IMG/VR virus record: IMGVR_UViG_3300028048_002585
Source of the DNA: an uncultured virus (IMG/VR IMGVR_UViG_3300028048_002585)
Taxonomy: Duplodnaviria > Heunggongvirae > Uroviricota > Caudoviricetes
DNA length: 64,000 nt
Strand: one strand, 5' to 3'
The position numbers were made by a program, and so were the translations under genes. Below are positions 6,667 through 49,171 of this stretch, in pieces (the stretch's first letter is position 1; each line of letters starts with the position of its first letter). Below the pieces are notes generated by a model that saw nothing but the letters and a program-made list of their open reading frames with translations, did no database searches and had not been told where the DNA came from.

Positions 6667-6727
6667 CTCCTTTCGAGTGTCAATAATTTCATAACTATTA
6701 TGTATAAAAATGTCTCAATCAAAAAAA
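6667..6727 (-). promoter_or_regulatory. Class-1 promoter/leader module (T7-N18-CATAATA...ATTGACAC...AAGGAG)
   Basis: TATTATG at 6696-6702, A-tract 18 nt away at 6721; recurs at many genes. Confidence 0.7.
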
Positions 6728-6780
6728 GAGCAGGGTATTCCTGCATGAAACACCTTGCTCTTCTTTTTTTTATTCAGTTG

Positions 6781-7431
6781 TCATATACTACAGATCGCTC
6801 TGGACGGAATGCGGAATATATCCTCATCTTCCATTAGGAACAGGATCCCCAGTATTGCCGTAGGCACGGGACAGTAATCAGGATTTGCCGCTATATGCAG
6901 CTTTTTTACCTTTCCTATCGAATGTAAAACGCTCTCGTTTATTTCTCTCTGGATGATATCGGCTACAAAAACGACGGCATTTTCTTCACTCATATATTTA
7001 TGAACATCCGAAAATGTTATGCGCAGATACTCTCCGCCTTTTGTCACCATTTCCATGCCGTGAGGGACGTTTACCTCATCAAGGTCTTCTATCGCCCTGT
7101 CATATCTTACTGAAAATACAATGTTAGTGGCTGCATTAGAAGCCTTGTCACTGCTCTCTTCAGCAAACTGCGAGGCCAGATAGTCGAGGTAATCGATCTC
7201 TTTCAGTGCGCTTACCGCCATCTCGTTTATGTCGTCTTCTGTATATCCTTCATACAGCTCTCCGACATAAACAGTTCCCGGATTCATCGGCACTTTTGAT
7301 AAATCCTCATCCTCTTCTGTATTAAGCGTATAGAGGATGTTCTGCTCCCTGTTGTATAACAGGAAACATCGTGCTATCTCCCCGATTCTAAGGGAGTTTA
7401 CACTGTCCATTACCATTTCCATATTATTCAT
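6781..7431 (-). CDS. Hypothetical protein; C-terminal half is a divergent paralog of 8363-8773
   Basis: ORF with GGAGG RBS and class-1 module; aligned motifs VRYDR/VRFDR. Confidence 0.75.
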   Translation of the reverse strand: MNNMEMVMDSVNSLRIGEIARCFLLYNREQNILYTLNTEEDEDLSKVPMNPGTVYVGELYEGYTEDDINEMAVSALKEIDYLDYLASQFAEESSDKASNAATNIVFSVRYDRAIEDLDEVNVPHGMEMVTKGGEYLRITFSDVHKYMSEENAVVFVADIIQREINESVLHSIGKVKKLHIAANPDYCPVPTAILGILFLMEDEDIFRIPSRAICSI

Positions 7432-7438
7432 ATGTTTA

Positions 7439-7538
7439 TCCTCCCATAAAAAGTGTCAATAATTTCATAACTATTATGTATAAATACCAAAAGTGCAAAA
7501 AAAGAGCCGATACAAAATGTATCGACTCAATTTTTTTT
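7439..7538 (-). promoter_or_regulatory. Shared terminator hairpin plus class-1 promoter/leader module
   Basis: GAGCCGATAC/GTATCGACTC hairpin, A-tract 7497-7503, TATTATG 7472-7478. Confidence 0.7.
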
Positions 7539-7872
7539 ACCACCAGCCGCTTCTTTCCTCGTATTCGAGAGGTTCATAATCATCTCTCGTATCTGGCTCT
7601 TCAAGGTCTGTTTTTTCAAAGCCAAGCTTCTCAAGAACATAATCGTTATCGATATTCGGATCGATCCACCATTCTTCAAGGAGATTCTTTATATCACTGC
7701 TGTACTTATCAGCTATCTCTACTTGCTTATTGAGATAGTTATATACGTTATTTTCGGAAAGATATTCTCCATCGCCTTCACAGTAATAGCATGTTTCGCC
7801 GTCTACTATCTCTGTCCCGAATATGTCTTTTACAGTATATTCATTAGAATCATAATATAACCCTAAAAACAT
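7537..7872 (-). CDS. Acidic hypothetical protein
   Basis: 111-aa ORF, RBS AAGGGGGG, directly downstream of radC. Confidence 0.7.
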   Translation of the reverse strand: MFLGLYYDSNEYTVKDIFGTEIVDGETCYYCEGDGEYLSENNVYNYLNKQVEIADKYSSDIKNLLEEWWIDPNIDNDYVLEKLGFEKTDLEEPDTRDDYEPLEYEERSGWW

Positions 7873-7884
7873 ATTTACCCCCCC

Positions 7885-8349
7885 TTACATATATCCCATT
7901 TTAAGAAGGGATTGATATCTGTTTTTGCCTACCACTATATGATCAACAAGTTTTATTCCTACCATTTGGAGAGATTCTTTGATTTTTTTAGTGATTGCAA
8001 TATCAATATCGCTTGGTTCGGGGTCTCCGGACGGATGATTATGTACAAGAATGGCTGAAACAGCTCCTGCAAGAAGCGCTATCTGACAGGTTTCCCTTTC
8101 AGGCATTAATGAACGATCTATCGTTCCTTGAGAAATCATCGTAATGGAAAGCAGGTGAAATGCAGTATCCATCCAGAAGGCATAAACTCTTTCTTGTCCA
8201 AGTTGGTCTATTTTTATGCCTTTTGCTATTTCGTATACCTTGTCATCATCATCCATTTTGTTTTCTTCATAAACATACATATCAGTATCAGAATATTCAA
8301 GATATGGTCGGCCATTTTCCAGTAGAAGGGTTGTCTGTTTAATCTGCAT
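7885..8349 (-). CDS. radC: RadC-like JAB-domain protein
   Basis: ILVHNHPSGDPEPSDID and LVDHIVVG motifs; likely start MQIKQ at 8349. Confidence 0.9.
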   Translation of the reverse strand: MQIKQTTLLLENGRPYLEYSDTDMYVYEENKMDDDDKVYEIAKGIKIDQLGQERVYAFWMDTAFHLLSITMISQGTIDRSLMPERETCQIALLAGAVSAILVHNHPSGDPEPSDIDIAITKKIKESLQMVGIKLVDHIVVGKNRYQSLLKMGYM

Positions 8350-8362
8350 AAACTCACCCCCC

Positions 8363-8773
8363 TTATACTGGTAACGGAGCACACATAATGTTTTGGGGAA
8401 CATCAAAATGCGTGCCGTCACTGAAGAAAAACTGCATGTCGCTGATTTCTGTTACATTCGGCCTGTTTCCATTATTTTCTCCGGTATAGATAAAGATTTC
8501 CGTGAATCTCTTTATACTTTCGATAATCTTTTTTGTCAGGCCTTTTGATGGAATTTCCGAATAATCGGTATCCAGCTCAAATGCAACAAGTCTTACCGAA
8601 TCTGTATCCAGCCTGTATACAGACGTCTGCTTGAAATCGAAGAAAATTTCTTCTCCGCTCCCGATTATTGCAGAGTATGCTCCCGGTACGGGATAATACT
8701 TTGCAATGTCGAACATCCGGTCAAATCTGACCGTCATGCCGAGGCTTTCAACCTTTGGATTGCTTTTTTTCAT
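8363..8773 (-). CDS. Hypothetical protein
   Basis: AAGGAGG RBS before ATG 8773; class-1 module upstream. Confidence 0.75.
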   Translation of the reverse strand: MKKSNPKVESLGMTVRFDRMFDIAKYYPVPGAYSAIIGSGEEIFFDFKQTSVYRLDTDSVRLVAFELDTDYSEIPSKGLTKKIIESIKRFTEIFIYTGENNGNRPNVTEISDMQFFFSDGTHFDVPQNIMCAPLPV

Positions 8774-8780: not shown

Positions 8781-8876
8781 TCCTCCTTATAAATGTCAAT
8801 AAATTCATCTATATTATGTACAAATAACGGAGGCATAAAAAAAAGAGCCGATACAATGTACCGACTCTCCTTTTTT
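8781..8876 (-). promoter_or_regulatory. Shared terminator hairpin plus class-1 promoter/leader module
   Basis: TATTATG 8812-8818, A-tract 8837-8844, leader AATTTATTGACATT. Confidence 0.7.
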
Positions 8877-8877
8877 A

Positions 8878-11811
8878 TTATGCAGATTCTTTATCAGCCT
8901 TTTCTGCCTTTGCTTTTGCTTTAGCTTTTTCAGCTCTTGCTCTTTTCTTTTCTGCTTCTTTGAATTCTCTTTCCGCTTCAAGAAGTTCTGCTACGTTTTG
9001 AAGTTCCTCTTCGGTTATTCCGGCTCGCTGATCCTCAAGCCTTGCTTTTTCCGCAACGTTATTCTTTTTGATTGCTTCAAGTGCTTCAAGCTGGGCTTCC
9101 ACGGAGCTTGCGTTGATACTGTTTCCGAGTATCTGATAGCTCTCGTTTAAGAATCTGTTATATACGTGCTTTCCCTTTGCTCCGTATGAAACATAGGTGC
9201 TGAGTACATATAACTCATCTCTTGCCCTTGTTGCCGATACGAAAAGAAGTCTTCTTGTCTCTTCGATATCTTCCTGTGTTCTCAGCTCTTTGTTTTCATA
9301 ATCCGATATATCGTCATATACTATCGGGTATTCAAGTCCTTTTGATGAATGCGCCGTTATAAGCTGGACACCCGGATATCTCCTTGTCCTGCGGAATGTC
9401 ATATCCGTACCGAACTTTTCATAATCTCTTGCGTATTCAGCCATATCCTGCACGGTCTTCCTGAGCAGAAGATTTTCGATAAAGCTGTTGTAAAGCTCAT
9501 CCTCATTGCTGTCGATGGCCTTCAGCATATTCTCTATCTCAGCTTTCTTGTTTTTTTCTGAAAGCGAATCAAGGTTTTCTATATCACAGAGGATATCATC
9601 ACAATATTCCTTGATATAGTCCGAGGTTTCATCCATTATTCCTCCGCCGTGCAGACAGTTTGCGTATCTTAAAAGGTCTGCCGTATCTGTCGGATCGTCG
9701 ATAATATTGAATAAACCTATCGCTGCTTTTACTCTCGGATTATCCAAGACTTTTTCAGGACAGCTTATCCTTGTTGGAATCCCTGCCTTATTGAGAACAT
9801 CCACGTAACCGGCTATCGTGCTCTTATTTCTTACTATAATTGCTATATCTTCCGGTTTTGTGCCGGATGCAATCTTTTGGGAAATAGAATCCGCAACCCA
9901 TTGCTGCTGTTCTTCGTCTGAAAGGAATCCCATTGCTACCACATCCTTGCCTTCAGGCCTTGTAGCTATAAGTGACTTCGCTACTCTGTGAACGTTCTTA
10001 TCGTTCACCTTGTTTGCAAAATCAATTATTTTCTTCTGGCTTCTGAAGTTGTTCATCAGGTTAATGGTATCAACCTTTTCACCCATAGCTTCACTGAAGT
10101 TGATAATAAAGTCAGGCGTGGTATTCTTGAATGAATATATTGCCTGGCTGTCATCTCCTACTACCATAAGTGACTCAAACTTTGGCGTATCCCTGAAATT
10201 CTTCAAAATCTCGATCTCTTTTTTGTTCGAATCCTGAAACTCATCGACTATTATGTGTCTGAATCCAAAATTTTCCAAGTAGAATGGATCGTTGTGAAGT
10301 ATCTCAAATACCATACCTTCCATATCTCCGAACTCTATAAGCCCTTTATCTCTGAGTATGCTGTCATACTCGTCATAAAGGTTTATGAGCTTCGAAACTG
10401 AAGACATATTGGCATTTCTCGGTAATTTATTCATAATATCACCGATAGTTTCCTGTCCGTAACCGCATTCCTTTATCTCACTGAATACCTTTTTTGCTGT
10501 AGCAAGTGCTCCCAGCGCATATTTGTTCTTCATTGTGAAATTTCTGTAATCCAGTCCCGGGATCTTTGTTTTGGTAAGCAGATCCGCTATTATGCGCGAT
10601 TTTTCGATCTCATCCATTACGTGAGGCTCTTTTGAAAATCCAAGATCCTGATACTTTTCATGCAGAATATCGTTTCCGAATGCATGGAATGTACATATCC
10701 TGAGTTTATCAAGATCTGCCTCAAGCCCCCAGTCTTCAGCATAGAGCTTTATTCTTTCCTTCATCTCAGCTGCTGCCGTGTTCGTGAACGATATAAGCAG
10801 TATCTCTTCAGGCTTTACTCCGTTAAATAACAGGGTAATGACTCTGAATACGACTACGAGTGTCTTTCCCGAACCGGCTCCCGCATTGATTCGGACGATG
10901 CCCTTGTCATATTCTATAGCTTCTGACTGATCAGCAGTGAACTGTATGTCGGCTACATGCCTCTTCAGCTCACCTTCAACGGATATCGGACCGTCACAAT
11001 ATGCTTTACAGATGTCGTAAAGCGCACAGTCCTCACAATCCTGCTTGTTACAGGTAGTGTCGTCATGTCCGTTGTAGAAATCTCTGCACTTCTGCGTCAT
11101 TCTCTTGTCAAGAATGGTCTGCGAACCGTCATATGCATCCGTCATGGAACGGATATTCTTTTCACCAAAATCATCAAACTTACCTTCAAGAGGCTTGTCG
11201 TCAGTCTGGCGAAGGAAATAGTAAGATGCCTTTACGATAACTCTTGTGCCGGGCTTTATAAAGTTTTTACCGTACTGCAGCATGGCATACAGCCCTATAT
11301 CGTTATCTGCTGCTACACTAGAGATCGGCTTTCCTGTCTTGACCTTTATGATCTCGACGGCGCCCTCATAAATGGTGTCATGCACCCATGTACCGGTTTC
11401 GGGATCCTTAAAGTATCCTTTCTGCGGAGTCGGGTCAAGTACCACAAAGTCAGGAGTTACTTTTACTTCCATCATTTCCGGTACTACTTCGATATCTGCT
11501 GGCACGGCTCTTATGATAGCTCTGTCCTCGTAATCAAGGTATCTCTTTATTTCGCTGAAAGCGTCTTTCTTATGCGCTTCCCTTTCAAGCTCGTTATAAG
11601 ATATATGCTCGAATTTCTCGTCGATCATATCCTTGAGCTCTGAATCTGAGAGAATCTCGCTTCCTTCAAACATCGCCTTATCAAGGATATCCTTGACAGC
11701 TATGGCTTTGTCGTAGTTCTCTCTCTTCTTTTCTTCGGCTTTGAATCCGAAGTTCCTGCCTTTGTTGCAGGCATTCGAGCCTGTAAGCTCAAACATTTTG
11801 AAATTCTTCAT
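8878..11811 (-). CDS. UvrD/PcrA-family SF1 helicase with N-terminal RecB/Cas4-like Fe-S nuclease-type domain
   Basis: AGAGSGKT, IVDEFQD, VGDDSQAIY, NNFRS, TAHSSKGLE, RRLLFVSATRA; N-terminal Cys15 plus CEDCALYDIC, TPDFV and IIKVKTG. Confidence 0.85.
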   Translation of the reverse strand: MKNFKMFELTGSNACNKGRNFGFKAEEKKRENYDKAIAVKDILDKAMFEGSEILSDSELKDMIDEKFEHISYNELEREAHKKDAFSEIKRYLDYEDRAIIRAVPADIEVVPEMMEVKVTPDFVVLDPTPQKGYFKDPETGTWVHDTIYEGAVEIIKVKTGKPISSVAADNDIGLYAMLQYGKNFIKPGTRVIVKASYYFLRQTDDKPLEGKFDDFGEKNIRSMTDAYDGSQTILDKRMTQKCRDFYNGHDDTTCNKQDCEDCALYDICKAYCDGPISVEGELKRHVADIQFTADQSEAIEYDKGIVRINAGAGSGKTLVVVFRVITLLFNGVKPEEILLISFTNTAAAEMKERIKLYAEDWGLEADLDKLRICTFHAFGNDILHEKYQDLGFSKEPHVMDEIEKSRIIADLLTKTKIPGLDYRNFTMKNKYALGALATAKKVFSEIKECGYGQETIGDIMNKLPRNANMSSVSKLINLYDEYDSILRDKGLIEFGDMEGMVFEILHNDPFYLENFGFRHIIVDEFQDSNKKEIEILKNFRDTPKFESLMVVGDDSQAIYSFKNTTPDFIINFSEAMGEKVDTINLMNNFRSQKKIIDFANKVNDKNVHRVAKSLIATRPEGKDVVAMGFLSDEEQQQWVADSISQKIASGTKPEDIAIIVRNKSTIAGYVDVLNKAGIPTRISCPEKVLDNPRVKAAIGLFNIIDDPTDTADLLRYANCLHGGGIMDETSDYIKEYCDDILCDIENLDSLSEKNKKAEIENMLKAIDSNEDELYNSFIENLLLRKTVQDMAEYARDYEKFGTDMTFRRTRRYPGVQLITAHSSKGLEYPIVYDDISDYENKELRTQEDIEETRRLLFVSATRARDELYVLSTYVSYGAKGKHVYNRFLNESYQILGNSINASSVEAQLEALEAIKKNNVAEKARLEDQRAGITEEELQNVAELLEAEREFKEAEKKRARAEKAKAKAKAEKADKESA

Positions 11812-11819: not shown

Positions 11820-11906
11820 TCCTCCTTATAAAGTGTCAATAAATTCATTTATATTATGTATAAATATTGGAGGCATAAAAAAAGACGCAGCTTTATGACT
11901 GCGTCC
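11820..11906 (-). promoter_or_regulatory. Terminator plus class-1 promoter/leader module
   Basis: GACGCAG/CTGCGTC hairpin, A-tract 11877-11883, TATTATG 11852-11858. Confidence 0.7.
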
Positions 11907-15819: not shown

Positions 15820-15848
15820 TTGACAGTAATTTTCCCATATAATATAAT
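15820..15848 (+). promoter_or_regulatory. Perfect sigma70/sigmaA promoter TTGACA-17-TATAAT
   Basis: TTGACA 15820-15825, TATAAT 15843-15848. Confidence 0.85.
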
Positions 15849-15853
15849 ATTCA

Positions 15854-16002
15854 TAGCAAATCGACAGTTTGCTATACCATCATATCAGCGGTTACTATCC
15901 AGTAGTCGCACTTATAGATCAGGTATCGGAAGGTACTTCGTCAAAAGGTTCCGATTCCTGTAATATGGTTAGAAGAGAAGCAGTTTGATTCTGCTTCTTT
16001 TT
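15854..16002 (+). ncRNA. Putative ~150-nt small RNA, opposite in direction to rep (ctRNA-like)
   Basis: Consensus promoter, hairpins (TAGCAAA/TTTGCTA; CAGGTATCGGAA/TTCCGATTCCTG), terminator GAAGCAG/CTGCTTC plus T-run; no convincing ORF. Confidence 0.65.
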
Positions 16003-16124
16003 CTATTTTAGATCGAAGGATGATTTTTTAATACATTATTCGACAATATTTATTATAGAAAATGAAATAGTACAAAGCAATATGTTGTGATTTTTTCTCT
16101 TTTTCCCACAAAATATGGATTCTG

Positions 16125-16500
16125 AAATACAACCGAATTGCATTCACGGTTGTTCTTTTTTCTGGTTGTGTTATATACAACTGAAATTTGGATAAAAACT
16201 GGATTAGATACAACATGGTTGTGCTGTTTGTAAACACAACCGGTTGTATAATGGTTAGTTGACACTATTATTTGTATTAAAGTGAAATCCAGTGAAAAGA
16301 TTAAAGCTATATTTAATCGTGATTTACATAAGATTGTTATGATGAATCTCTTTACTACACAACAAGGTTGTTTAAGAGAATGAACGGGATGGATTATCAC
16401 AATCATGTTGTGAGTGGTTGGTTGTATAGATGTTTATAAACTATAGAAATGAAAATTATGGTTGTATAGGGTTGTACAACTTGGTTTTGTGCAATTTGTA
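16125..16500. repeat. ACAAC-N2/3-GTTGT array (cluster 2)
   Basis: ACAACatgGTTGT, ACAACcgGTTGT, ACAACaagGTTGT, ACAATcatGTTGT and half-sites. Confidence 0.75.
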
Positions 16501-17215: not shown

Positions 17216-17272
17216 AATATTAATACTAAAATTAATACTTTGGTCGTAGTATTAATACTAATATTAATACTA
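17216..17272. repeat. ATTAATACT repeats between the divergent resolvase-like gene and parA (operator-like)
   Basis: Four copies of ATTAATACT, including the palindrome AGTATTAATACT. Confidence 0.55.
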
Positions 17273-17353
17273 CGCGATTTTTTAATAACGATTCTTTCTC
17301 AAACAACATAGTTGTGTTATAATCTAAAGACTTGTATTATTCGGAGGTTTTTT

Positions 17354-22109: not shown

Positions 22110-22215
22110 AATGGCCTCTTTTTTAACAGTTAAATATTTGTCTCTATATATATTATGTATAAATTTTCAGATAAAACGAAAAAAGAGAGAGAAGACTGAC
22201 TTCTCCCTCAATTTT

Positions 22216-23907: not shown

Positions 23908-23915
23908 TTTTTTAT

Positions 23916-23978
23916 CCTCCTTATAAGTGTCAATAATATTCACATGTATTATGTATAAATACTTGATGTTTAAAAAAA
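23916..23978 (-). promoter_or_regulatory. Class-1 promoter/leader module
   Basis: TATTATG 23947-23953, A-tract 23972-23978, leader TTATTGACAC. Confidence 0.7.
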
Positions 23979-25522: not shown

Positions 25523-25537
25523 GAAGGAGGTGTGCTT

Positions 25538-25747: not shown

Positions 25748-25754
25748 AAAAAAT

Positions 25755-25850: not shown

Positions 25851-25857
25851 TAAGTAT

Positions 25858-32942: not shown

Positions 32943-32954
32943 AAAGGAGTAACA

Positions 32955-36238: not shown

Positions 36239-36581
36239 AGTAAGAGATGTATAATGAAACGAAGTGGCAGCGTGAGTCAACGCTGTCATTTTTATATTCT
36301 CCAAATTTGTTCGGGTACTAAGAAGAACAGTCTAAATTATTATATTCTGAATTATAATAATTTAAAATATAATAATTCATGTTTTTGTTATAAAAAATAC
36401 GAAGATATGTATGCATTTTTATAAATATGGTTAATTAAATGAAATATTCAACAGATATTAATAAGTTTTTTAGTGATTTTTTGGGGTGATAATCTATATT
36501 TTGGTGATTTTTATTTTTTTTTATACATAATATATATAGAGGAACAATTTCCGAATATATTTTTACCGAAAGGATTGTGTT

Positions 36582-36980
36582 ATGGAAAAAGACGATAACT
36601 TAATTGAAGGTGTTAACGAGGATCCTTCTGTAGGGCATATAATCACCCGTGATGAAGCGATAGCTCTCTTATATAAAATATCTTCACAGATAGATAAAAG
36701 GTTCATTGCCCCGCTTGGTGAGGTTATCTACTGTCTTCAGGCAGAGCAGATTAATTTCCATGTATGGGGAGGAAATCCTAATGAAACCGCATACCTGTTT
36801 TTATCCCCTAATTCTCATCGTATAACAGATATCGAACGTGAAGAGCTCCGGAGAATATTTAAAAAATACCGATATGGTCTATCATCATCTGATATGGACG
36901 AACGTAAGCTTGCAGCGGATGAATATGATGCTTATCTGCAGAGTTTTATTTTGAGAGGAGATAAGAAAGATGAAAGCTGA
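36582..36980 (+). CDS. Hypothetical protein
   Basis: 132-aa ORF after a TTATACATAATA motif at 36521. Confidence 0.65.
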   Translation: MEKDDNLIEGVNEDPSVGHIITRDEAIALLYKISSQIDKRFIAPLGEVIYCLQAEQINFHVWGGNPNETAYLFLSPNSHRITDIEREELRRIFKKYRYGLSSSDMDERKLAADEYDAYLQSFILRGDKKDES

Positions 36981-37263
36981 AGATAAGGAAATGAAAAGAA
37001 ATGACCTGTGTCTTAACGTCTTTTCTTCGAGATTACAGTATCTGATGAAGAAGAGAGGAATCTCTATAACCCAGATGGCTGAATTCTGCGGAGTTACTAC
37101 AAGTACATTTTCATCATATTATCATGGAAAAGCTGATCCTAAACTATCCGTAGTGATGTTGATCGCGCATCGGCTTAACGTGACTGTTGATGAACTATGC
37201 GATCTTGACGTTATCAAAATCGTATGCTGGCAGAATAAGCAGTATTTGTGGGAAAAACATTAA
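36970..37263 (+). CDS. XRE-family HTH regulator
   Basis: RGISITQMAEFCGVTTSTFSSY..P..IAHRLNVTVDEL. Confidence 0.85.
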   Translation: MKAEDKEMKRNDLCLNVFSSRLQYLMKKRGISITQMAEFCGVTTSTFSSYYHGKADPKLSVVMLIAHRLNVTVDELCDLDVIKIVCWQNKQYLWEKH

Positions 37264-37373
37264 TACTTGTTAAGGAAAACAAGAAAATGGCCCATGATGG
37301 CCTACCTGCTGCGCAGGACATTATAAAACCGCCTCAACGTGCAATACGAAGGGCGGTTTTATATTTGCTATAT

Positions 37374-38840
37374 TTAGCTGAACTGATCATCTATCCAGTC
37401 ATCGCTTTGAGTGTCGGTAAATGATGCATCGTATTCTTCAATACTGTTAGTGACCTCATCATCGTCCTGGCCTCCGGTCATAAACGGATCATCGTCATCG
37501 GACTCCTGGGCAGATTCAACTTCGCTTTCATCAGTTTCCGGAACTTTACCGATCATTTTATTGTAATTATCGTACTCAGCTGTCAGCTGCGCTTTCATCT
37601 GTATATATTCTTCTTCATCCGACATTTTGTCCTTTTCTTGTTTCTTGATATTTTCCGTCAGGTTCTTTTTCTTATTTCCTGTAATCGTATGCTTCATAGG
37701 ATGCTTTGCAATATATATCATAAATATAATGACTGCTACTGAAAGAGTCAGGCCGATAATAAGCCCTACATCGACAGAAGATTTCTGTTCTTCCTCCGGC
37801 ATAACCGCTTCCTCTGTAGTCTTTTCTATATCATCTTCAGGAATGGCTTCTATCTCTGTTTTGCTTCCTGCATATTCCTTTGGTATGAACGAGCATACAT
37901 TGTCCGTATTTATGGACCATTTTCCGTATTCTGCATGAGAAACATCCAGCTGTACAAAGGTGTCTGTCCATGTAAGAAATATATTCATGGAAGATGTACG
38001 GAGCTGTGTCGTATCCTCTGAGAGTTCGCTAGTAGTTCCGTCGGGTGATGTAAGAGTTACAACGGTAGGACGGGGAGAACCTTCCTCATCGACAGGATAT
38101 CTTACTACAATCGTAAGAACAGGACTTCGTTCGGTTATTTCGAATACGTAGTTGGTTCCTTTTTTGGATCCTGTGTCTGTTACGGATTCCTGTTCAGAGA
38201 GAGAGTAGATGTCGTCATAATTATATACAATACCCGCATCATTCTCCATTTCGGCAAGAAGACTCTCATTGTGTACCCTTGCTTTCTGTGCCATTGAAAG
38301 AGCGTTATATGAATATCGGGTCTTCTTTATGTCTTCCGAACTCTTTGATTCTTCAGAGTAAAGATTATATATATCTTCTTCAACCTTGGCTGCAGATTCT
38401 CCGTCGGAATTAAGATATGCCACCTCATTAGAGTTATAGTTTTCTCCGTGGGGGAGCGGATCCCCATTCTCTGGAGGATTTAGAAGCACTCCATCCGCTC
38501 CAAGAATGTATATTCCTATATTTGTATCGTGTTGCATTATTCCGTCGGCACCAAAGTAATACCATACATTCTGAGGCTTATACCATCCCTTTATGATCTT
38601 TCCGTCTACAACGTAACGCTTTCCCGCATTTGAATCCTGCCACACGCCGGGCTCTGCATCTGTCGGGCTGGCTTTTTCTTCTTTCTCTGGTACTGGTTCA
38701 TCTTCAGATGAATTTTCACCCTGTTCCTGTGTATCAGCCGTATTGGTATGGAATATCTGTGTTTCAGTTACTTTGCCCGGGCTGAATGTCATCATTAATG
38801 ACGTGATTATGGATATTGTAAGTAACTTAGTCTTTAACAT
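37374..38840 (-). CDS. Secreted cell-wall-binding-repeat protein with C-terminal TM anchor and acidic tail
   Basis: Signal peptide, GWY..WYYFGADGIM repeat, TM LIIGLTLSVAVIIFMIYI. Confidence 0.75.
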   Translation of the reverse strand: MLKTKLLTISIITSLMMTFSPGKVTETQIFHTNTADTQEQGENSSEDEPVPEKEEKASPTDAEPGVWQDSNAGKRYVVDGKIIKGWYKPQNVWYYFGADGIMQHDTNIGIYILGADGVLLNPPENGDPLPHGENYNSNEVAYLNSDGESAAKVEEDIYNLYSEESKSSEDIKKTRYSYNALSMAQKARVHNESLLAEMENDAGIVYNYDDIYSLSEQESVTDTGSKKGTNYVFEITERSPVLTIVVRYPVDEEGSPRPTVVTLTSPDGTTSELSEDTTQLRTSSMNIFLTWTDTFVQLDVSHAEYGKWSINTDNVCSFIPKEYAGSKTEIEAIPEDDIEKTTEEAVMPEEEQKSSVDVGLIIGLTLSVAVIIFMIYIAKHPMKHTITGNKKKNLTENIKKQEKDKMSDEEEYIQMKAQLTAEYDNYNKMIGKVPETDESEVESAQESDDDDPFMTGGQDDDEVTNSIEEYDASFTDTQSDDWIDDQFS

Positions 38841-38960
38841 TTTAAAACCTCTTATATTTGTATTTTGTACCAAAACCCTCAAGGTTTTGACTTTATACGT
38901 TTTAATAAGAAAACGTGAGTAAAAAAAATGAAAAAAATGTATTAACTAGACCGTCTGTCC

Positions 38961-39120
38961 TTGATGATTTAGTACAAAATGGTAATTTAAGCACTTTATT
39001 TTAAACAAAATATTGAATATTTATTAAAAAAATTAGCGTTTTCCTTGATGGTTTAGTACAAAATATCATTATAACGTTATAATTCTGCCTATTTTCTCAT
39101 TCCTTGATGGTTTAGTACAA
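38961..39120 (+). repeat. Three dispersed iterons downstream of rep (control-type)
   Basis: TTGATG(G/A)TTTAGTACAA at 38961, 39045, 39104. Confidence 0.85.
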
Positions 39121-39124
39121 AATA

Positions 39125-40171
39125 TTATGAAAAATCACTTAATGCCTCGTCAGTAAGTTCCTCTATCTTGTATATTTCGTTTCCTTTTACAAATACACCA
39201 TTTTCTATACTGAATACACTCTTATCATAGTTGTTTTCTTCTTCAGGACCAAAGTCCTTGATCTTATTAAGTGCTTCTTCTATGGCTTTGTCAGTTTCAT
39301 ATAATTCCATAGGCGTTTTATATCTAGTTATACAAATTACTGCTTCATTTTTTTTGTCCTCAATGACGTCTTCAATGATTACTGCTCCAAGTTGGTTTAT
39401 TGTTTTCATTGAAGGCTTAATGATTTTATTTTTTAGTCGGGACACATATTGAAGACTTTTCGGCAAGCAAAATGATTTGCAGGTCTGAACAAGTTCAAAG
39501 GGTATATTATATAATTTCTTGTCAAGGTCTTCTGTCAGTTTGATGTAGCTCTTCTTTATTTCATCGTCATAATTTTTATATTCTTTTCCATATCTTGCAC
39601 GGAATTGTTTGATTTCCTGACCTCGTTCCTTATCCATTTGGGCTTTTATATTCATATATACTCTTTGAGGATATTTACCTCTTAATCGAAGTACGTATTG
39701 TCCGGGATTTTTTGTAAAATTGTATTTTTTGTTTACTAGAAAGGGCATTAGTCTTTCGTCTATCTCTACAACAGCAAAACGATTATTTGGATTAACAAAT
39801 TCAGTTCGGCGCAGGATAAAACGCAAATCCGTAAATGAATTGTTAGGTCTTAAAATCTCTATGTTTTTAATTGTGAGCATTTTGATAGCATTGGATATTT
39901 CATTATATGATTCACCGTTTCTTGGCATGCCGGTTGATGCACAGAATCTTTTAAATGTGATGGGATATATTGTTCTATAGATAGGATTCCCAGCTTCATC
40001 ATAGTCAACTTTCGAATCTACATTCATTGCAAGATAATGTACAATCTTTAGTTCTACCTCTCCGAAGTCGTATGATCCATAAAATATAAAATCATTATGA
40101 AGTTCTACATCTCTCTTATAGAGGGTAGCTATGTCATACATTTTATCATTTTCATTAATTTTCTTTTCCAT
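39125..40171 (-). CDS. Rep_3-family plasmid replication initiator (copy C, iteron-associated)
   Basis: HNDFI..YDFGEVELKIV, LMPFL, LRGKYPQRVY, IIKPSMKTIN; iterons on both sides. Confidence 0.85.
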   Translation of the reverse strand: MEKKINENDKMYDIATLYKRDVELHNDFIFYGSYDFGEVELKIVHYLAMNVDSKVDYDEAGNPIYRTIYPITFKRFCASTGMPRNGESYNEISNAIKMLTIKNIEILRPNNSFTDLRFILRRTEFVNPNNRFAVVEIDERLMPFLVNKKYNFTKNPGQYVLRLRGKYPQRVYMNIKAQMDKERGQEIKQFRARYGKEYKNYDDEIKKSYIKLTEDLDKKLYNIPFELVQTCKSFCLPKSLQYVSRLKNKIIKPSMKTINQLGAVIIEDVIEDKKNEAVICITRYKTPMELYETDKAIEEALNKIKDFGPEEENNYDKSVFSIENGVFVKGNEIYKIEELTDEALSDFS

Positions 40172-40198
40172 ATGTAGTATCCTTTTAACGTGATTGCT

Positions 40199-40325
40199 TT
40201 GATGGTTTAGTACAATATCTTTGATGGTTTAGTACAATATCTTTGATGATTTAGTACAAGGTTCTTGACGGTTTGGTACAAGATTCTTGACGGTTTAGTA
40301 CAAGATTCTTGACGGTTTAGTACAA
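40199..40325 (+). repeat. Six 22-bp-period iterons (likely replication origin)
   Basis: TTGAYGRTTTRGTACAA at 40199, 40221, 40243, 40265, 40287, 40309. Confidence 0.9.
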
Positions 40326-40560
40326 CCCTATTTTTTTGATGCCTGTATTTATTGGATTTACGCAATTTTGTCCTCTACAACATATAAACGTTTTAACATT
40401 ACTAACGTATTATATAACGGTCAATTAAACAGGCCGAACTCTACAATCCCTGATTTGAACCTCTATATATATTATGTATAACTTTCGTTTAAAATCGCCC
40501 AAAAACAGCTTTTGCTGATTTATGTACGAATTTATACATAATGTATTTAGGAGGTGTGAT

Positions 40561-41178
40561 ATGATTCCAATGTATCCAGTATCGGTATTCAGCACTAAAG
40601 AGCTGAGCCATAGAAACAGAAGAAAGCTTGCCTCATTCGGTCTGATTTGGGATGGGGTAGAGTATTCGGGCATCGTCAGGGAGAAAACTCTTCACAGAAT
40701 CAAGAAATACTGTTCAATTCATAAATACCGTTTCCGCATAGAAAATAATCTCGGACGGAGAGGAAGTGATTACAGGCGAAGATACTTTATCATGAATAAG
40801 CCTGTCTTCCGTGACAAGTATATCTGTGTATATTGTGGCAAACTGCTCAAAAAAGATGATGTGACAATCGACCATCTTTATCCCATAGGAAAGGCGTCCA
40901 AGAGCATCAGCTATCAGAAGAAACTCAACCGAAGAGGATTGAAGAATATAAATGACGGAAAAAATCTCGTGTCTGCCTGCTATAAATGCAATGCACTTAA
41001 AGGGACAGACACGGGTATCTGGATCCTTAAGGGGAAGATAGGTCTTATCTACCCTCTATGGATAGTGAGATATTTTTTCCGTCTGGTAATCATAGTATCA
41101 GCCTTCGTTATGCTCTGGTGGCTCTGGCGGTATTATGATGTTTCATCACTTATCGGCAGATTCATGCATCCCTTTTAA
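40561..41178 (+). CDS. HNH endonuclease-domain protein with C-terminal TM helix
   Basis: CVYCG, TIDHLYP, NLVSACYKCNALKG; hydrophobic C-terminus. Confidence 0.8.
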   Translation: MIPMYPVSVFSTKELSHRNRRKLASFGLIWDGVEYSGIVREKTLHRIKKYCSIHKYRFRIENNLGRRGSDYRRRYFIMNKPVFRDKYICVYCGKLLKKDDVTIDHLYPIGKASKSISYQKKLNRRGLKNINDGKNLVSACYKCNALKGTDTGIWILKGKIGLIYPLWIVRYFFRLVIIVSAFVMLWWLWRYYDVSSLIGRFMHPF

Positions 41179-41471
41179 AGAGTGGAAGGGAAGTCCGTGT
41201 CGATTTCCGGGATGTCTATGGTATCGACTGTGCTGTAATTGTGCATGATATGGGAAATCTCCCTTATCTTGTCGTCCTTCAGTGCAATTTCCCTTACTGC
41301 AGGGAATATACCTTCCTGTATATATTTGGTTCCATTTTCACCGTTCTGAACTGCAAATACTGCAAAAAACGGGATATTACTTTCCTTACACAGATTAGTC
41401 AGGGTATCGAGAGACTCTTTGATTTTCTCATTAAATTCTTCTGTTTTGTCGTAACTTACAATGTTTGACAT
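41175..41471 (-). CDS. Hypothetical protein
   Basis: AAGGAG RBS; last gene of the minus-strand operon. Confidence 0.65.
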   Translation of the reverse strand: MSNIVSYDKTEEFNEKIKESLDTLTNLCKESNIPFFAVFAVQNGENGTKYIQEGIFPAVREIALKDDKIREISHIMHNYSTVDTIDIPEIDTDFPSTL

Positions 41472-41500
41472 GTTATATTCTCCTTTGTTATATATATTTT

Positions 41501-44575: not shown

Positions 44576-44742
44576 TGACGTATATGTTCTTTGATAATAT
44601 CACTCTAAAACATATTGACGTATATTGCAATACTAATTTTTGTATTTCCGTCAATTTCTTTGACGCTGATTTTGACGTCACTATATCTGACGTATTTTCG
44701 TTTCATATGTATTATGTATAAATTATGTGTGCTTAAAAAAAA
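44576..44742. promoter_or_regulatory. Operon control region: CGTCA-N7-TGACG palindromes plus class-2 (44630-44602, minus) and class-1 (44710-44742, minus) promoters
   Basis: Palindromes at 44649 and 44676; TTGCAA-17-TAGAGT; TATTATG 44710 with A-tract 44735. Confidence 0.7.
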
Positions 44743-44889
44743 GAGCATTAATGTGGAGTAGTTTAAACTGATATTTTATGGGTGGAATGTCTTTTCATGT
44801 GTTTTTTTGCAACAGTTTTTACTTTTTATACATAATATATATGACAGGAAATTCTTGAGAAGGAGAGCGGCTCTGCCGCAGACAAGCTT

Positions 44890-45651
44890 ATGATTAATAA
44901 GGTTAAAGTCATTGGAACACTGGTCGGGACAGGAAGAGGGTTTCTCGGTTATAACGAGATAATCGTCCGGATCGAAAAGAGGGGTCAGAAGAAATACAAT
45001 GTAAGCCTCGTTCTTGAAGAAACACTCACTCCTGACGTAGTTGTAGGAGCTAAGGTGGAGATTGACGGCATAGTAAGGGCTGTCAGAATGTCAGACCTTG
45101 ATGGTAAGACAAAAGTAGTACAGTATCTCGCTGCACGTTCAGTGAGGATATCCCATGAAAAGTCCTCTCTTCAGAAAGAATATGGGATTGTTTCATATAA
45201 TAAGAAGAATGATGATTTTACCATCATTCTTGAAGGACTGGTAAGAGAAGTCAGATCCTACGGAAAACCAAATCAGATGCTGATCATGGAAATCGAAGAC
45301 GAAAAGAGGAGGCGGGGAACGGTTTCGGTATTAGCCGATACAAAAGATATCCCTTATCTCCGGGGTATGATCCATGAAAGGGATACAGTGATCGTATCAG
45401 CCATCACTCAGGCGTCTCCCGATGCAAAGCCGTTTGTCATGAAAAAAGATATCGGCGTAAAGTTGTATATCGATGATATTGGAATTAAAAAGAGAGCAAA
45501 GAAAAAGGATACTTCTTCCCAATCGAAGGCAAAGGAAGTGAAGATGAATCCAAAGAGGTCGGTAGAGCTTCCTATTGAGATCCTGCCACCTGAAGATGAT
45601 CAGCCAAATACAGATAATAACGAATCAGATTTTGATAATATATTTGAATAA
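44890..45651 (+). CDS. Putative tandem OB-fold ssDNA-binding protein
   Basis: Two repeats (NKVKVIG..GAKVEIDG; FTIILEG..DTVIVSA) and an acidic tail ending DNIFE. Confidence 0.45.
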   Translation: MINKVKVIGTLVGTGRGFLGYNEIIVRIEKRGQKKYNVSLVLEETLTPDVVVGAKVEIDGIVRAVRMSDLDGKTKVVQYLAARSVRISHEKSSLQKEYGIVSYNKKNDDFTIILEGLVREVRSYGKPNQMLIMEIEDEKRRRGTVSVLADTKDIPYLRGMIHERDTVIVSAITQASPDAKPFVMKKDIGVKLYIDDIGIKKRAKKKDTSSQSKAKEVKMNPKRSVELPIEILPPEDDQPNTDNNESDFDNIFE

Positions 45652-45951: not shown

Positions 45952-46896
45952 ATGGAAAACAATAAGGTTTTAAAGGGCTGTGAGGACCCGAAGGGTATAT
46001 TTTCGGCATTTCGAGAGGATGGCAGAAGTATTCATGTAGAGGCACATTTTTCACCTGCTGCTCCTGAAGATAATGAACATCCTCTGAAGGTGTTCGGAAG
46101 ACTTTCAAGATTAAAATTCACTATCATTGATAAGAAAGATACAAAAAAGAAATACTGTGAAGCAAGTGTACAGTATGACAAGATAGCTAACATGCGCAAA
46201 ACCGGAGATTATGCATTTAACAAGATAATGGATGCAAAATCATCCGTTGTATCGACCGAAACGAGTCCTGCTTATACGGTAAGGATGACCAATGGTCCTT
46301 TTAGGGGGATGACGCCTGCTGAGATAATGAGCAACCCGGGAAACAAGGATACTCTCAACAAGCACTATGCTTTTCTCGATGAAAACTGCAGTAAGTATCC
46401 TAATAACAAAAAGCAGATGGATGCGATAATGGATGCTGCAAATCTTATGAAAGAAGGAAAGCTCAAGACGGTGGTCAACGCGAACAGTTTTGTTACGATT
46501 CTTGAGGCTGTTCCGCTCCCACAGATATACAGAGACGGCGTAGTCTTTGATTCCGCTACGAGCAGCTATATCTACCAGAAGAGAGAAGATAAGCTCTGTC
46601 CTGTGAATGAGATAGAGATAGTGTGTGATACGAGCAGGAATTCTCCTTACATAGTGACAATTTCAAATTATTTTGCTCCGGTTGTTAAAAATAAGGAAAA
46701 CGGAAAGCTGAATGCCATAAAGAAGAATATGGCGGATGAAGTGAGATATGTATTCAACCTCACTACAGCTGAATGGAATTCGTTTATGGAATATGAAAAG
46801 ATCGCGGAAGAAATCTTTATTAACACTTATGGCTTCAATATGCAGAAAGAAGCGGAAAAGTGGTTTAAAAAGAACCGTGAAGGAATAATAGCTTAA
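45952..46896 (+). CDS. Hypothetical protein
   Basis: 314-aa ORF with RBS. Confidence 0.75.
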   Translation: MENNKVLKGCEDPKGIFSAFREDGRSIHVEAHFSPAAPEDNEHPLKVFGRLSRLKFTIIDKKDTKKKYCEASVQYDKIANMRKTGDYAFNKIMDAKSSVVSTETSPAYTVRMTNGPFRGMTPAEIMSNPGNKDTLNKHYAFLDENCSKYPNNKKQMDAIMDAANLMKEGKLKTVVNANSFVTILEAVPLPQIYRDGVVFDSATSSYIYQKREDKLCPVNEIEIVCDTSRNSPYIVTISNYFAPVVKNKENGKLNAIKKNMADEVRYVFNLTTAEWNSFMEYEKIAEEIFINTYGFNMQKEAEKWFKKNREGIIA

Positions 46897-46967
46897 AGAG
46901 AATCATTGTCGATCCCCACCCATCTGCGGATGGGGAAAGATAATGGCGTTAAATAAGAGGGATAATT

Positions 46968-47306
46968 ATGGATGATTATATTAGATTCGATTTTACAGAT
47001 AAGCTTCTGACTTTTGTCGCAAGAACGTCGGATTCGTCCGAACAGGCAAAACGCAGCCATTATGATATCCTCTTCTTTAAAGATGAAAAGGGTAACATAT
47101 ATAAATATCCTGCAAGAGTAGATAAGAGAGGACGGGACATGACTGTCTTCGGGAAGTGCTGCCGGAAGGATGATATCGGAGGAAAATACTATGTCTCAGG
47201 ATCGGCAGGACTCATCAGCCTTCCGTTTGACGGCTACGATACGGATGTTTACGAAATATATGAAGCGAGAACAGAGACAAGGTTTGCAGCGGAATGTGCT
47301 GTATAG
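46968..47306 (+). CDS. Hypothetical protein
   Basis: 112-aa ORF with RBS. Confidence 0.65.
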   Translation: MDDYIRFDFTDKLLTFVARTSDSSEQAKRSHYDILFFKDEKGNIYKYPARVDKRGRDMTVFGKCCRKDDIGGKYYVSGSAGLISLPFDGYDTDVYEIYEARTETRFAAECAV

Positions 47307-47552
47307 AAGTTCAACAACGTAAAAACCCGGCATATCGGGAAGTTGGCACCTTCCTGACATAACCGGTTTTTAAATAAGCGGTATATCTCCCCAAGATATC
47401 CGTGGGGGACGGGGTCTTCGGGCTCCGTCCTTCATGCATTTTTATAGATGGATTATATAACTTTTATGTGATTTTGGCAATTTATCAAAACATTTATACA
47501 TAATATATATGGGAGAAGTTTTGTTTTCAAAACATTTCTGGGGAGGTTTTAT

Positions 47553-47774
47553 ATGAGAGATGATGATTTTGAGAAACTGAATAATGAGGCGGGCTTTTCA
47601 AAGAAGAATACGAAATATATCGTATTTACGGCGTTGCTCCTTGTCTATTTTATAGTGATACTCCTGCTCGATTCGCTGGGTATCATATCTGTTTTAGTGA
47701 GAAGGATCCTTATGTACGGGATGTTTCTCGTCATGCTCATTGTATATGCGATTCTTAGAAGAAGGGAGAAATAA
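47553..47774 (+). CDS. Small membrane protein
   Basis: Two TM helices; GGAGG RBS; CATAATA motif at 47499. Confidence 0.7.
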   Translation: MRDDDFEKLNNEAGFSKKNTKYIVFTALLLVYFIVILLLDSLGIISVLVRRILMYGMFLVMLIVYAILRRREK

Positions 47775-47776
47775 AT

Positions 47777-48484
47777 ATGGATGCCTTGAATATATCAAGA
47801 GCCTGTGATTATCTCATGGGCAAGACGAACAGGTACACTCCCAAGACGGTTTCTATCGAGCCCGGTAGGAAATTGAAGGAAAAGGAAATGAAGGCTCTTG
47901 AAGTCATTGCTTTCTTTGTCACGGATTATATGAACTGGACTCCGCTTGATGCTGTTGATCACCTTACAAATGATATAGTTGAATGCTTCGGACTTATGGA
48001 GTTTTTCAAGTATGTGATAATAGATGACAATATGAGAAAAATCGATAAAAATAAGCCTTTGAGCGACATTACAATTAAGTACATCCTCAGCAAGGCATTT
48101 CCCGATGTTGTTATTTTTGACGAGGAAGAGGGTGTCATCGATGTATGGGATGCGGTTCAGAACGGAGATATAACCAAGTGGCCTAGCAAGTTCTTTTCTG
48201 ATGAGAACGGAACGAGAAGGCGAATGATCATCTTTAAGGAGTTTCTCAGGCGCTATATTTCGGTAAACGAAAAGGATCTTTATGAGGAGTTCAAGAAGTC
48301 CGCTGCCATCAATAATGAGTTGAGAAAGAGGAAGCTCTTCTATGTGTTCTCACCATATTATGTACAGCCTATAGATCTGCTGCATGAGTATCTTCAGAAC
48401 GAAGACAGAGAAGACGAGTTCCTTTATGTTCTTTATAAGTACGAAAATATATGTCCGATATCTTTACCGGTCACAAAATGGTAA
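47777..48484 (+). CDS. Hypothetical protein
   Basis: 235-aa ORF coupled to the previous gene. Confidence 0.7.
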   Translation: MDALNISRACDYLMGKTNRYTPKTVSIEPGRKLKEKEMKALEVIAFFVTDYMNWTPLDAVDHLTNDIVECFGLMEFFKYVIIDDNMRKIDKNKPLSDITIKYILSKAFPDVVIFDEEEGVIDVWDAVQNGDITKWPSKFFSDENGTRRRMIIFKEFLRRYISVNEKDLYEEFKKSAAINNELRKRKLFYVFSPYYVQPIDLLHEYLQNEDREDEFLYVLYKYENICPISLPVTKW

Positions 48485-48520
48485 ACAAAAAGGCCGCCTT
48501 TTGAGGACGACCTAAATGTT

Positions 48521-49081
48521 TTAATCAACAAGTTTGATCCTGTCTATGATGGACACGATCAGCGCCTGTTTCTGCTGAAGAGTTCCGGAAGCCGTAAACT
48601 CTTCGTAAGACGAACAGCCTGAAAGGTTTTTCGCCTTGAGTCTCATTTCCTCGTCTATAAGACTGTCGAAGATAATGAGAAATTCGTTTACACCTTTCTC
48701 GTCAAGAGAAAGCGTGTATTCATCTGCGTCAACGGATGAAAAGGTAGAATGTAGAAATTCCTGAAGCATTTGTTCAGCTGATGCACGGTCTGCCACATCC
48801 TTGATTATGTTTTTATCCAGAATGTAACGAATATTTGCATATCCTTTGAGTCCTTTTTCCGAAAGTATCTCGGATATAGACTTACCTGAGCATGAACCAC
48901 AGCCTTCCGGAACGATCGGATCCTCATGGATTACTTCTGCTTTTTCAAGCCTGCTTTCAGGAGCGGTGGCCGGTGACAGAAGACCGGTAAGGAATTCTTC
49001 CATTGATGCGGTGCAGTCATCAATGTAGATGACTACGGAAGTTCCGTCTCGGAACATCCTGATTTTCATACTATTTTCCAT
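48521..49081 (-). CDS. Hypothetical protein
   Basis: AAGGAGG RBS; class-1 module at 49088-49151. Confidence 0.75.
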   Translation of the reverse strand: MENSMKIRMFRDGTSVVIYIDDCTASMEEFLTGLLSPATAPESRLEKAEVIHEDPIVPEGCGSCSGKSISEILSEKGLKGYANIRYILDKNIIKDVADRASAEQMLQEFLHSTFSSVDADEYTLSLDEKGVNEFLIIFDSLIDEEMRLKAKNLSGCSSYEEFTASGTLQQKQALIVSIIDRIKLVD

Positions 49082-49171
49082 TTCGTTTCCTCCTTCATGG
49101 TGTCAATTATTCTATATATATTATGTATAAATATGGAGGGAACAAAAAAAACTACATATGGGGATTTACTA

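Follow-up and report, generated by a model that had tools for sequence, protein, structure and literature searches.

A 13-bp word, TTTATACATAATA, stands nearly invariant before genes in a 64,000-nucleotide stretch of DNA catalogued as the uncultured virus record IMGVR_UViG_3300028048_002585 in IMG/VR (hereafter the window, meaning the whole stretch, with position 1 its first letter). The DNA is that of an uncultured rumen plasmid, a distant relative of the Butyrivibrio megaplasmids, and the family of sites carrying the word heads most transcription units from 6.6 to 49.2 kb. These sites are very probably promoters, and they are not standard sigma-A promoters. An earlier note, made from the sequence alone, had proposed a non-canonical promoter family, and the proposal gained from two observations: the sites have no -35 box and no TG upstream of the -10 hexamer, and contigs from RNA libraries begin just after the word. 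The note's further suggestion, that an alternative or plasmid-encoded sigma factor or activator defines the regulon, is a hypothesis. The best single reading, to which we assign a probability of roughly 0.45, is that a dedicated specificity factor reads the word.

The promoter word and its cassettes

Ten copies of T7-N18-CATAATA were found in the 64-kb window, compared with 0.03 expected and a maximum of one in 100 shuffles. CATAATA in these strict sites lies at 6696, 7472, 8812, 11852, 23947, 44710, and 49119 on the minus strand and at 25811, 26651, and 27803 on the plus strand, all exactly as the earlier note had reported, and all ten have TTT(A/G)TA immediately 5' of it. The eight looser copies that it had listed are also real, seven (22151, 25277, 36526, 40470, 44831, 47499, and 63800) being exact 13-mers and one (40537) reading CATAATG. 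CATAATA alone occurs 44 times in the window versus 18.3 expected. Of the 12-mer core of the word, TTATACATAATA, there are 15 exact copies, and 19 if one mismatch is allowed, versus 1.04 expected; one of the 19, at 10427 on the plus strand, is intragenic and a chance match. A weight matrix trained on 17 sites identified 18 strong sites (scores 19.4 to 30.7) and one marginal match (55692, score 14.3), and mononucleotide shuffles (n = 20) gave 0 to 2 matches at an equal threshold. All 18 strong sites are intergenic or lie within artefactual 5' extensions of open reading frames (ORFs). Seventeen face a start codon, in keeping with the orientation toward downstream genes noted before, and the exception, 63800, faces a hairpin only. 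The strong sites are distributed over 6.7 to 49.2 kb, with one orphan at 63.8 kb. To call the family replicon-wide was thus an overstatement, since 0 to 6.6, 12 to 22, and 49.2 to 63.7 kb have no copies and use canonical promoters.

Aligned on CATAATA, all sites share the consensus (T/A)(A/T)TTTATACATAATA. The fifth base 3' of CATAATA is T in 18 of 18 sites and the sixth is a purine in 17. A pyrimidine at -1 followed by a purine at +1 is the usual start geometry of sigma-70-family polymerases. The conserved T and purine therefore suggest a layout with TTTATA at -18 to -13, CATAAT at -12 to -7, T at -1, and the purine at +1.

Two classes of site can be told apart by what surrounds the word. Class A comprises 6696, 7472, 8812, 11852, 23947, 25811, 26651, 27803, and the hybrid 49119, with 25277 as a degenerate copy. 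Downstream of the word, class A has four variable bases, a 15-bp box (TGAAWTTATTGACAC), approximately eight variable bases, a Shine-Dalgarno site (AAGGAGG), and ATG. The box, which would span +1 to +15, contains TTGACA, and a copy of it without mismatch is absent elsewhere in the window. The ATG lies 32 to 35 nt past the predicted start (36 nt at the degenerate 25277), the T7-8 tract lies at -38 to -31, and the AT-rich cassette measures approximately 90 bp from hairpin to ATG. In class B (22151, 36526, 40470, 44831, and 47499), the word is followed by TATAT(A/G) and the sequences diverge thereafter. Site 44710 has T8-N18 geometry and no leader box. The geometry had been described as exact. This is true of the 18-nt spacing in class A and at 44710 and does not extend to class B, in which T-runs are 19 to 24 nt away or missing. 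TTGACA does lie downstream, in the leader, at nine of the ten strict sites; that it forms part of a conserved 15-bp box, and that the T-run is mostly a terminator tail, had escaped notice.

Seven of the ten strict sites have a strong hairpin (-14.7 to -23.6 kcal/mol) directly before the T-run, and often an A-run before that hairpin; the T-run is there the tail of the upstream gene's terminator. The other three (23947, 44710, and 49119) lie in divergent-promoter regions with no hairpin (0 to -5 kcal/mol) and keep T7-8 at an unchanged distance, indicating that the tract belongs to the cassette and not to the terminator alone. Mean pairwise identities were calculated for nine class A copies, seven from the window and two from a rumen-type metagenome contig, L014. 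They were 1.00 for the T-run, 0.30 for the 10-nt spacer, 0.93 for the word, 0.51 for the four bases after it, 0.95 for the leader box, and 0.48 for the eight bases after the box. Near-random spacers of constant length between near-invariant blocks argue for selection on the blocks and their spacing, and not for recent copying. All 13 copies have a purine directly behind the T-run, a result of only weak significance given the base composition.

The absence of a sigma-A -35 box, claimed earlier, was confirmed. The best TTGACA match at 16 to 18 bp averages 2.78 of 6, versus 2.52 at random window positions, and a match of at least 4 of 6 occurs at two of the 18 sites, versus 13% of random positions. 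TG occupies -15/-14 at none of the 18 sites, 16 of which have AT there and two GT. A generic sigma-70 scan gave no excess of promoter-like sites (61 versus 59.2, 68 versus 61.4, and 72 versus 68.8). Textbook sigma-A promoters exist in the window, with two 12/12 matches at 15820-15848 and 53734-53763; in addition, TGtTATAAT precedes parA and the NERD gene, and TGgTAATAT precedes gene 24147. The host's ordinary promoter type thus occurs on the same molecule as the word and plainly differs from it.

The resemblance of CATAATA to the -10 box of the sporulation factor sigma-G, which the earlier note had pointed out, is real: the consensus CATnnTA is matched at 17 of 18 sites. The sigma-G -35 (GnATR, 17 to 18 bp upstream) is absent, as had also been stated, and a T-run or variable sequence takes its place. 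A host sporulation sigma of the sigma-G, -K, or -E kind could in principle read the word and express these genes in sporulating cells. The first-position C is invariant, and approximately half of the sites also fit the sigma-K pattern CATAnnnTA. We nevertheless regard this explanation as very improbable. No base is conserved at the -35 positions of sigma-G, -F, -K, or -E; replication and partition would be limited to sporulation, and RNA was seen in four bulk rumen/gut runs; and the nearest plasmid relatives come from Butyrivibrio and Ruminococcus.

Other box arrangements were considered and rejected. The scan called TTGACA-16/18-AAAAAT at 6683, 11839, and 23933, with the leader TTGACA as the -35. 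That -10 would overlap the start codon, the pair is not conserved at other sites, and RNA-library contigs begin upstream of the start of such a promoter. Inspection of the opposite strand by eye revealed no pair of boxes that could serve, and a promoter there would fire into the upstream terminator. Frpo-type single-stranded-DNA promoters use a long hairpin to rebuild -35 and -10 boxes on the transferred strand, and their units share one orientation. The class A sites lie on both strands (five minus up to 23947, four plus, and one minus at 49119), and the sole hairpin at the cassettes is the upstream terminator.

RNA-library contigs at the word sites

The window stretch is present in cattle and sheep rumen/gut metagenomes from 15 studies and in six RNA runs. 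Four rumen/gut metatranscriptome runs (three samples, three studies) were compared with positions 21501-41500, and contig positions were available for 32 of 160 pieces. Those 32 pieces fall on gene bodies, with breaks at the terminator-promoter segments. Contigs start at 25302, 25306, and 25311 behind site 25277 (predicted +1 at 25289); at 25838, 25844, and 25845 behind 25811 (25823); at 26676, 26678, 26683, and 26683, in four of four runs, behind 26651 (26663); at 27831 and 27835 behind 27803 (27815); and at 36552 behind 36526 (36538). The lag from predicted +1 to contig start is 13 to 22 nt at these five sites. At gene 24147, a control with a TGn-type promoter, contigs start 8 to 10 nt past the predicted start. 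Contigs end beside terminators (for example, at 25758, 27751, and 25170), and contig depth lies between 0 and 26 over the 20 kb, with the same profile in all four runs. Such uneven and reproducible depth is unlike DNA carry-over. From approximately 28.8 to 36 kb there were no RNA-library contigs among the compared stretch, and no conclusion is drawn from this.

Several features of these data weigh against reading the contig starts as transcription starts. Assembled contigs carry no strand and no true 5' ends, and evidence of this kind is rated as weak. Positions 25803-25854 and 26643-26694 share a 52-nt repeat that could break contigs at both sites; sites 25277, 27803, and 36526 have no repeat of at least 31 nt in the window able to break assembly. 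One piece (X17, 40304-40560) spans the divergent pair 40470/40537, and one contig (X16) includes the 27803 promoter itself.

The contig starts also bear on a different kind of enzyme. A non-bacterial-type or single-subunit polymerase carried by the element might read the word as a T7-like block, or TTTATA as a TATA-like box with a start approximately 25 nt downstream. One long invariant block with a purine-rich start is phage-like in style, and contigs start 2 to 5 nt past the position 26 to 27 nt downstream of the TTTATA center, a slightly better fit than the -10 layout gives. We consider such a polymerase highly improbable. The window has no polymerase-like ORF, its context is bacterial (Shine-Dalgarno sites, hairpin terminators, HU, ParAB, and Rep3), the T at -1 and purine at +1 are conserved exactly 6 nt past the word, and control gene 24147 shows a similar lag.

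One X17 contig connects 24330 directly with 36507. It omits 12,176 bases, stops 19 nt short of the 36526 word, and has only 21 letters on its shorter side. The joint may be spurious; if real, it would be a variant without the class A cluster and the topoisomerase operon. Cassettes could also be recombination or module-exchange junctions, or RNA processing sites within longer transcripts, given that they flank unrelated genes in two elements and that this possible joint falls beside one of them. We give this account very little credence. Strong terminators precede seven of the ten strict copies, so downstream genes need a start of their own; 17 of the 18 sites are oriented to genes; the -10-like core and the start geometry point the same way; and the listed RNA contigs do not bridge class A cassettes.

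Portability, lineage, and the reading factor

A search for the class A pattern in metagenome contigs recovered L014 (L015 is the same contig), in which a 5-kb stretch includes three cassettes: a pair of class A copies that keep T7-N18 around spacers of other sequence, and a class B copy with T7-N20 and a terminator stem as in the window. Only the cassettes are common to L014 and the window; the genes differ. Those of L014 encode LPD28, DUF4314, DUF4116, and DUF1810 domains, and we take LPD28 and DUF4314 to be typical of the "polyvalent protein" modules of conjugative elements. In a variant contig (X16) with altered sequence upstream of 27803, T7 is still exactly 18 nt before CATAATA, with a different spacer.

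Other matches to the class A pattern were discarded. Among 185,579 species genomes there was one match, in a Saprospiraceae metagenome-assembled genome; it lacks the TTTATA prefix and was taken as chance. A single virus-like family, with TTGACA-N17-TAGAAT as an ordinary promoter, accounts for three viral loci and for eight of the 12 metagenome loci; we take these matches as one coincidence, and those in L007 and L011 are chance matches. In that family, loci L002 to L006, L008 to L010, L012, L013, and L016 have the 27-nt pattern TACATAATA-N4-TGAA-N3-ATTGACA, with TAGAAT 17 nt past TTGACA. The 18-mer TTTATACATAATATATAT was found at 54 loci in viral contigs, with one match each and many of them in giant-virus bins, and was judged from the table of matches to be low-complexity chance.

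PLSDB and the phage collection gave no near match for 10 kb of the window, and a query with the cassette returned one weak 41-nt match, to a Clostridium taeniosporum plasmid. Compared with plasmid proteins, the first Rep had one distant match and the second none; the second Rep3 and the DUF5688 protein have no relatives in viral contigs. The actin-like partition protein and the secretion-type ATPase had their best plasmid matches, at 29 to 42% identity, in pCY360 (Butyrivibrio proteoclasticus), pNP144 (B. hungatei), and pRUMAL01 (Ruminococcus albus). The G+C content of pCY360 is 38.95%, compared with approximately 33 to 45% along the window. These three megaplasmids (926 kb) contain no exact word, and one-mismatch copies number 30, versus 31 for a reversed control. 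In pCY360 (L071, 4278-4290 and 10257-10269), TTTATCCATAATA, one base off the word, stands before two genes of the segment that is syntenic with the window, in one case directly behind a terminator hairpin, and may be remotely related to the word. As far as these comparisons reach, the word is private to this plasmid lineage. A full-text literature search for the 11-mer TATACATAATA found no bacterial-promoter paper in the portions of text that such a search displays.

We propose that the word acts as a long one-block "-10" element with no -35 and no TG, that transcription would start at the purine 6 nt past it, and that RNA polymerase would read it through a dedicated sigma or sigma-like factor encoded by the host or elsewhere on the plasmid. 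What speaks for a dedicated factor is the near-invariance of 13 bp, including the C at -12, the lack of -35 and TG, the canonical promoters alongside, the absence of the word from the megaplasmids, and the portability of the cassette.

Three observations count against such a factor. Scans of the 64 kb with Pfam (64 ORFs, 36 of them a second time at E up to 0.5), NCBIfam (37 ORFs), and PHROGs (42 ORFs) yielded no sigma, sigma-like, or polymerase protein. The hexamer CATAAT has the key A at -11 and T at -7 and is compatible with a housekeeping sigma. Finally, a replication gene and the partition operon depend on the word, which would be risky if the factor were private. The sole candidate, and a lead only, is a 281-aa ORF (53807-54652) with a C-terminal HTH_7 domain, 44 nt behind a perfect TTGACA-N18-TATAAT. 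Its nearest language-model clusters (0.83 to 0.92) are partly labelled Sigma70_r4, and chance matches are common at such scores.

The same observations lend themselves to an explanation without a special factor, the main rival and in our view the less likely of the two: the sites would be ordinary sigma-A "-10-only" promoters in which the A/T-rich -20 to -13 segment and the T-tract act as a UP-like or curved element. The cassette would then have been copied as a strong expression module, and the box would serve as an operator or act on the mRNA or its translation. CATAAT matches the sigma-A hexamer TATAAT at five of six positions in all 18 sites, and a start 7 nt past the hexamer, with the geometry seen here, is typical of sigma-70-family holoenzymes. 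The empty factor search, the use of the word by replication and partition genes, and their steady-state expression in rumen RNA libraries would all be expected, and terminator stems are also common to cassettes, as if whole modules were copied. Other observations count against it. The -35 is at background level and TG is missing throughout, and the C at -12 and TTTATA are almost invariant while adjacent spacers are at 0.30 identity. We know of nothing in sigma-A recognition that would call for an invariant C at -12 and TTTATA. Moreover, TGnTATAAT and TTGACA-N17/18-TATAAT are used elsewhere in the replicon, class B has no fixed T-tract, and the related rumen megaplasmids lack the word.

Under the dedicated-factor reading, we take the leader box as a site of common control, most simply an operator, although it may instead act at the mRNA level or in pausing. 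Through it, DNA-handling genes and small acidic genes, the latter probably for establishment or anti-defence, would form a sub-regulon. Two results are unfavorable to an operator: no dyad symmetry was consistent in six of six copies of the box checked, and class A genes have the highest contig depth in all four runs, contig depth being itself unreliable. The high depth is a poor fit with tight repression through the box.

A bolder and speculative extension is that the plasmid lineage runs a private transcription code. An unrecognized sigma-like factor, for example the helix-turn-helix (HTH) protein of 53807-54652, would be bootstrapped from a textbook sigma-A promoter, the terminator-to-promoter distance, constant at 38 nt, would pass a polymerase that has finished one unit directly to the next cassette, and genes would be swappable as insulated modules.

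Genes behind the word and known systems

On the minus strand, the class A cassette at 6690-6727 (predicted +1 G at 6690; box 6678-6691; hairpin -23.6 kcal/mol) heads AAA_5 (4951-6657) and VWA (2678-4906) genes, and the one at 7466-7503 (box 7454-7467; hairpin -17.4) heads an acidic 216-aa ORF (6781-7431). A TTTGTA variant at 8806-8843 (box 8794-8807; hairpin -19.8) heads a 134-aa ORF, RadC (7885-8421), and a YqaI-like gene (7537-7872), and the cassette at 11846-11883 (box 11834-11847; hairpin -14.7) heads a 977-aa UvrD-like helicase (8878-11811). At 23941-23978, which heads a RecJ-like gene (22216 to approximately 23905), the box is 1 nt longer and there is no upstream hairpin. The class A/B hybrid at 49113-49150, with T8-N18, two mismatches in the box, and no hairpin, heads an acidic 186-aa ORF (48521-49081). 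On the plus strand, the degenerate copy at 25271-25289 (T6 at 19 nt and a weakened box) heads a 65-aa zinc-ribbon ORF and a 71-aa ORF. Cassettes at 25786-25823 (box 25822-25835) and 26626-26663 (box 26662-26675) head the DUF5688 genes 25858-26559 and 26698-27735, respectively, and a TTTGTA variant at 27778-27815 (box 27814-27827) heads a 192-aa ORF and, probably, SMC-like, RecD-like, and topoisomerase genes to 36238.

Class B sites on the minus strand are 22145-22163, where the word is followed by TATATAGAG, with T6 21 nt upstream and a hairpin of -17.9, heading a 388-aa ORF and a T2SSE-type ATPase (19096-22109), and 40464-40482, heading the second Rep3 initiator (39125-40171) through a leader of approximately 290 nt. 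Divergent from the latter, the variant word ending in CATAATG (40531-40549, plus strand) heads an HNH gene (40561-41178). The remaining class B sites, all on the plus strand, head a 132-aa ORF and an XRE-type HTH regulator (36970-37263) from 36520-36538, a basic 253-aa ORF (44890-45651) from 44825-44843, and a 73-aa membrane ORF and a 235-aa ORF from 47493-47511. The T8-N18 site at 44704-44741 (minus strand), with no box and no hairpin, heads the S26 peptidase and actin-like partition operon through a 140-nt leader with ACGTCA palindromes. The orphan word at 63794-63812 (minus strand), with an expected +1 of C, faces only a hairpin and T-run (63752-63812), which also terminates the plus-strand gene 63234-63713. 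It is either the source of a tiny antisense RNA or a decayed cassette.

Class A targets thus include AAA_5/VWA, RadC and YqaI-like, UvrD-like, RecJ-like, and two DUF5688 genes, a nucleotidase-like ORF with SMC-like, RecD-like, and type IA topoisomerase genes, and several small, very acidic ORFs (pI 4.1 to 4.9). Class B and 44710 head the second Rep3, the S26 peptidase/actin-like partition operon, the XRE-type regulator, the basic 253-aa ORF, and membrane ORFs. Judged from the predicted domains, this split fits a common promoter with a control element added on an establishment and DNA-handling subset. The basic 253-aa ORF has an acidic C-terminal tail and a weak OB-fold match in Pfam (E = 0.11), and it may be a plasmid single-strand-binding protein. 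For three ORFs of unknown function, a PDB sequence search gave no match below E = 0.03, and Protein Atlas had no usable match for ORF 45952-46896. Rfam gave no matches over the whole window, and there are no tRNAs in it.

Some further features of the window were observed. At 15820-16002, a perfect TTGACA-N17-TATAAT is followed approximately 125 to 150 nt on by a hairpin terminator (15972-16002), with no ORF between and no Rfam match. This unit adjoins the first Rep3 gene and GGTTGTA-type repeats (approximately 16100-16480); a possible reading is a replication-control RNA next to iterons. Palindromes of the form ACGTCA-N7-TGACGT, three near 2.1 to 2.3 kb (2064-2276) and two at 44649-44693 in the partition-operon leader, are candidates for a centromere or an adaptor-binding site. 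Repeats of TTAATACTA form a run at 17216-17275 that contains a hairpin of 13 pairs. The run immediately precedes parA's TGtTATAAT promoter and is probably a ParB centromere or operator. The region from 49200 to 63700 has a G+C content of 33 to 39% and no promoter word, and it encodes HU, a DnaD-like/dUTPase fusion, Lar, UvrD, two adjacent EcoRI-type adenine methyltransferases, and GmrSD/HNH. Together with the presence of two Rep3 genes, this module suggests a cointegrate of two backbones.

Conjugative plasmids need fast, ordered expression of replication, partition, and counter-defence genes after entry, and such wiring in plasmids of Gram-positive bacteria and gut anaerobes is known from few Bacillus cases. 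In this plasmid, one invariant word marks most transcription units, breaking the two-box promoter rule, and a second element has the cassette in front of unrelated genes. Should a dedicated factor read the word, the cassettes would constitute a compact, portable expression system and would help to locate the establishment genes of such plasmids by sequence alone. If the host's ordinary polymerase reads it, the word would be a natural strong promoter without -35 or TG in Clostridia.

Parallels are found in plasmids and phages. The kor regulon of IncP plasmids is a plasmid-wide set of identical regulatory cassettes. The late promoters of phage T4 consist of the word TATAAATA, an extended -10 without a -35 that is read by gp55 with gp33 in a manner linked to the sliding clamp. 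They resemble the sites described here in having a single extended -10-type word without a -35; the word itself differs, and PHROGs found no gp55-like ORF among 42 ORFs. PeSL elements of T4-like phages place a terminator and a standard early promoter of the host polymerase between genes. As in the cassettes of the window, a terminator hairpin abuts a promoter, the arrangement is repeated between modules, and it is a likely hot spot for module exchange, but PeSL elements differ from the cassettes, which have a non-canonical word and a conserved leader box.

Among Bacillus plasmids, p576 of Bacillus pumilus carries EGeRS2, in which strong, canonical sigma-A promoters of the form TTtACt-N14-TGnTATAAT have dual TTATCCC heptamers on their flanks, to which the ribbon-helix-helix repressor Reg576 binds (PMC6294495, PMC8708921). 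EGeRS2 likewise places several operons under one conserved promoter-plus-operator sequence, and the genes are of the establishment type and variable between related plasmids (PMC6294495, PMC8708921). Unlike the p576 promoters, the word sites have no -35, TG, or TTATCCC heptamers; the window has eight heptamer matches at up to three mismatches versus 7.21 expected, none of them at a cassette. EGeRS1 of the pLS20 family is 420 to 750 bp long, GC-rich (51%), and highly structured, and it showed no constitutive promoter (PMC8708921). Both EGeRS1, which insulates from upstream read-through, and the cassettes are conserved repeats before establishment operons (PMC8708921), whereas the cassettes are approximately 90 bp long, AT-rich, and promoter-like. 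The plasmid-encoded SigN (ZpdN) of Bacillus subtilis pBS32 recognizes two-box promoters, e.g., TTTACGTTT ... GATATAAT (PMC6751061). Its regulon is likewise a promoter set confined to one plasmid and is a precedent for a private sigma (PMC6751061), and it differs from the sites studied here, which have one block and no sigma gene found within 64 kb. Plasmid-wide cassette sets are therefore already known; what sets this case apart is the word, its one-block design without -35 or TG, the fixed terminator-promoter geometry, and the TTGACA-bearing leader box.

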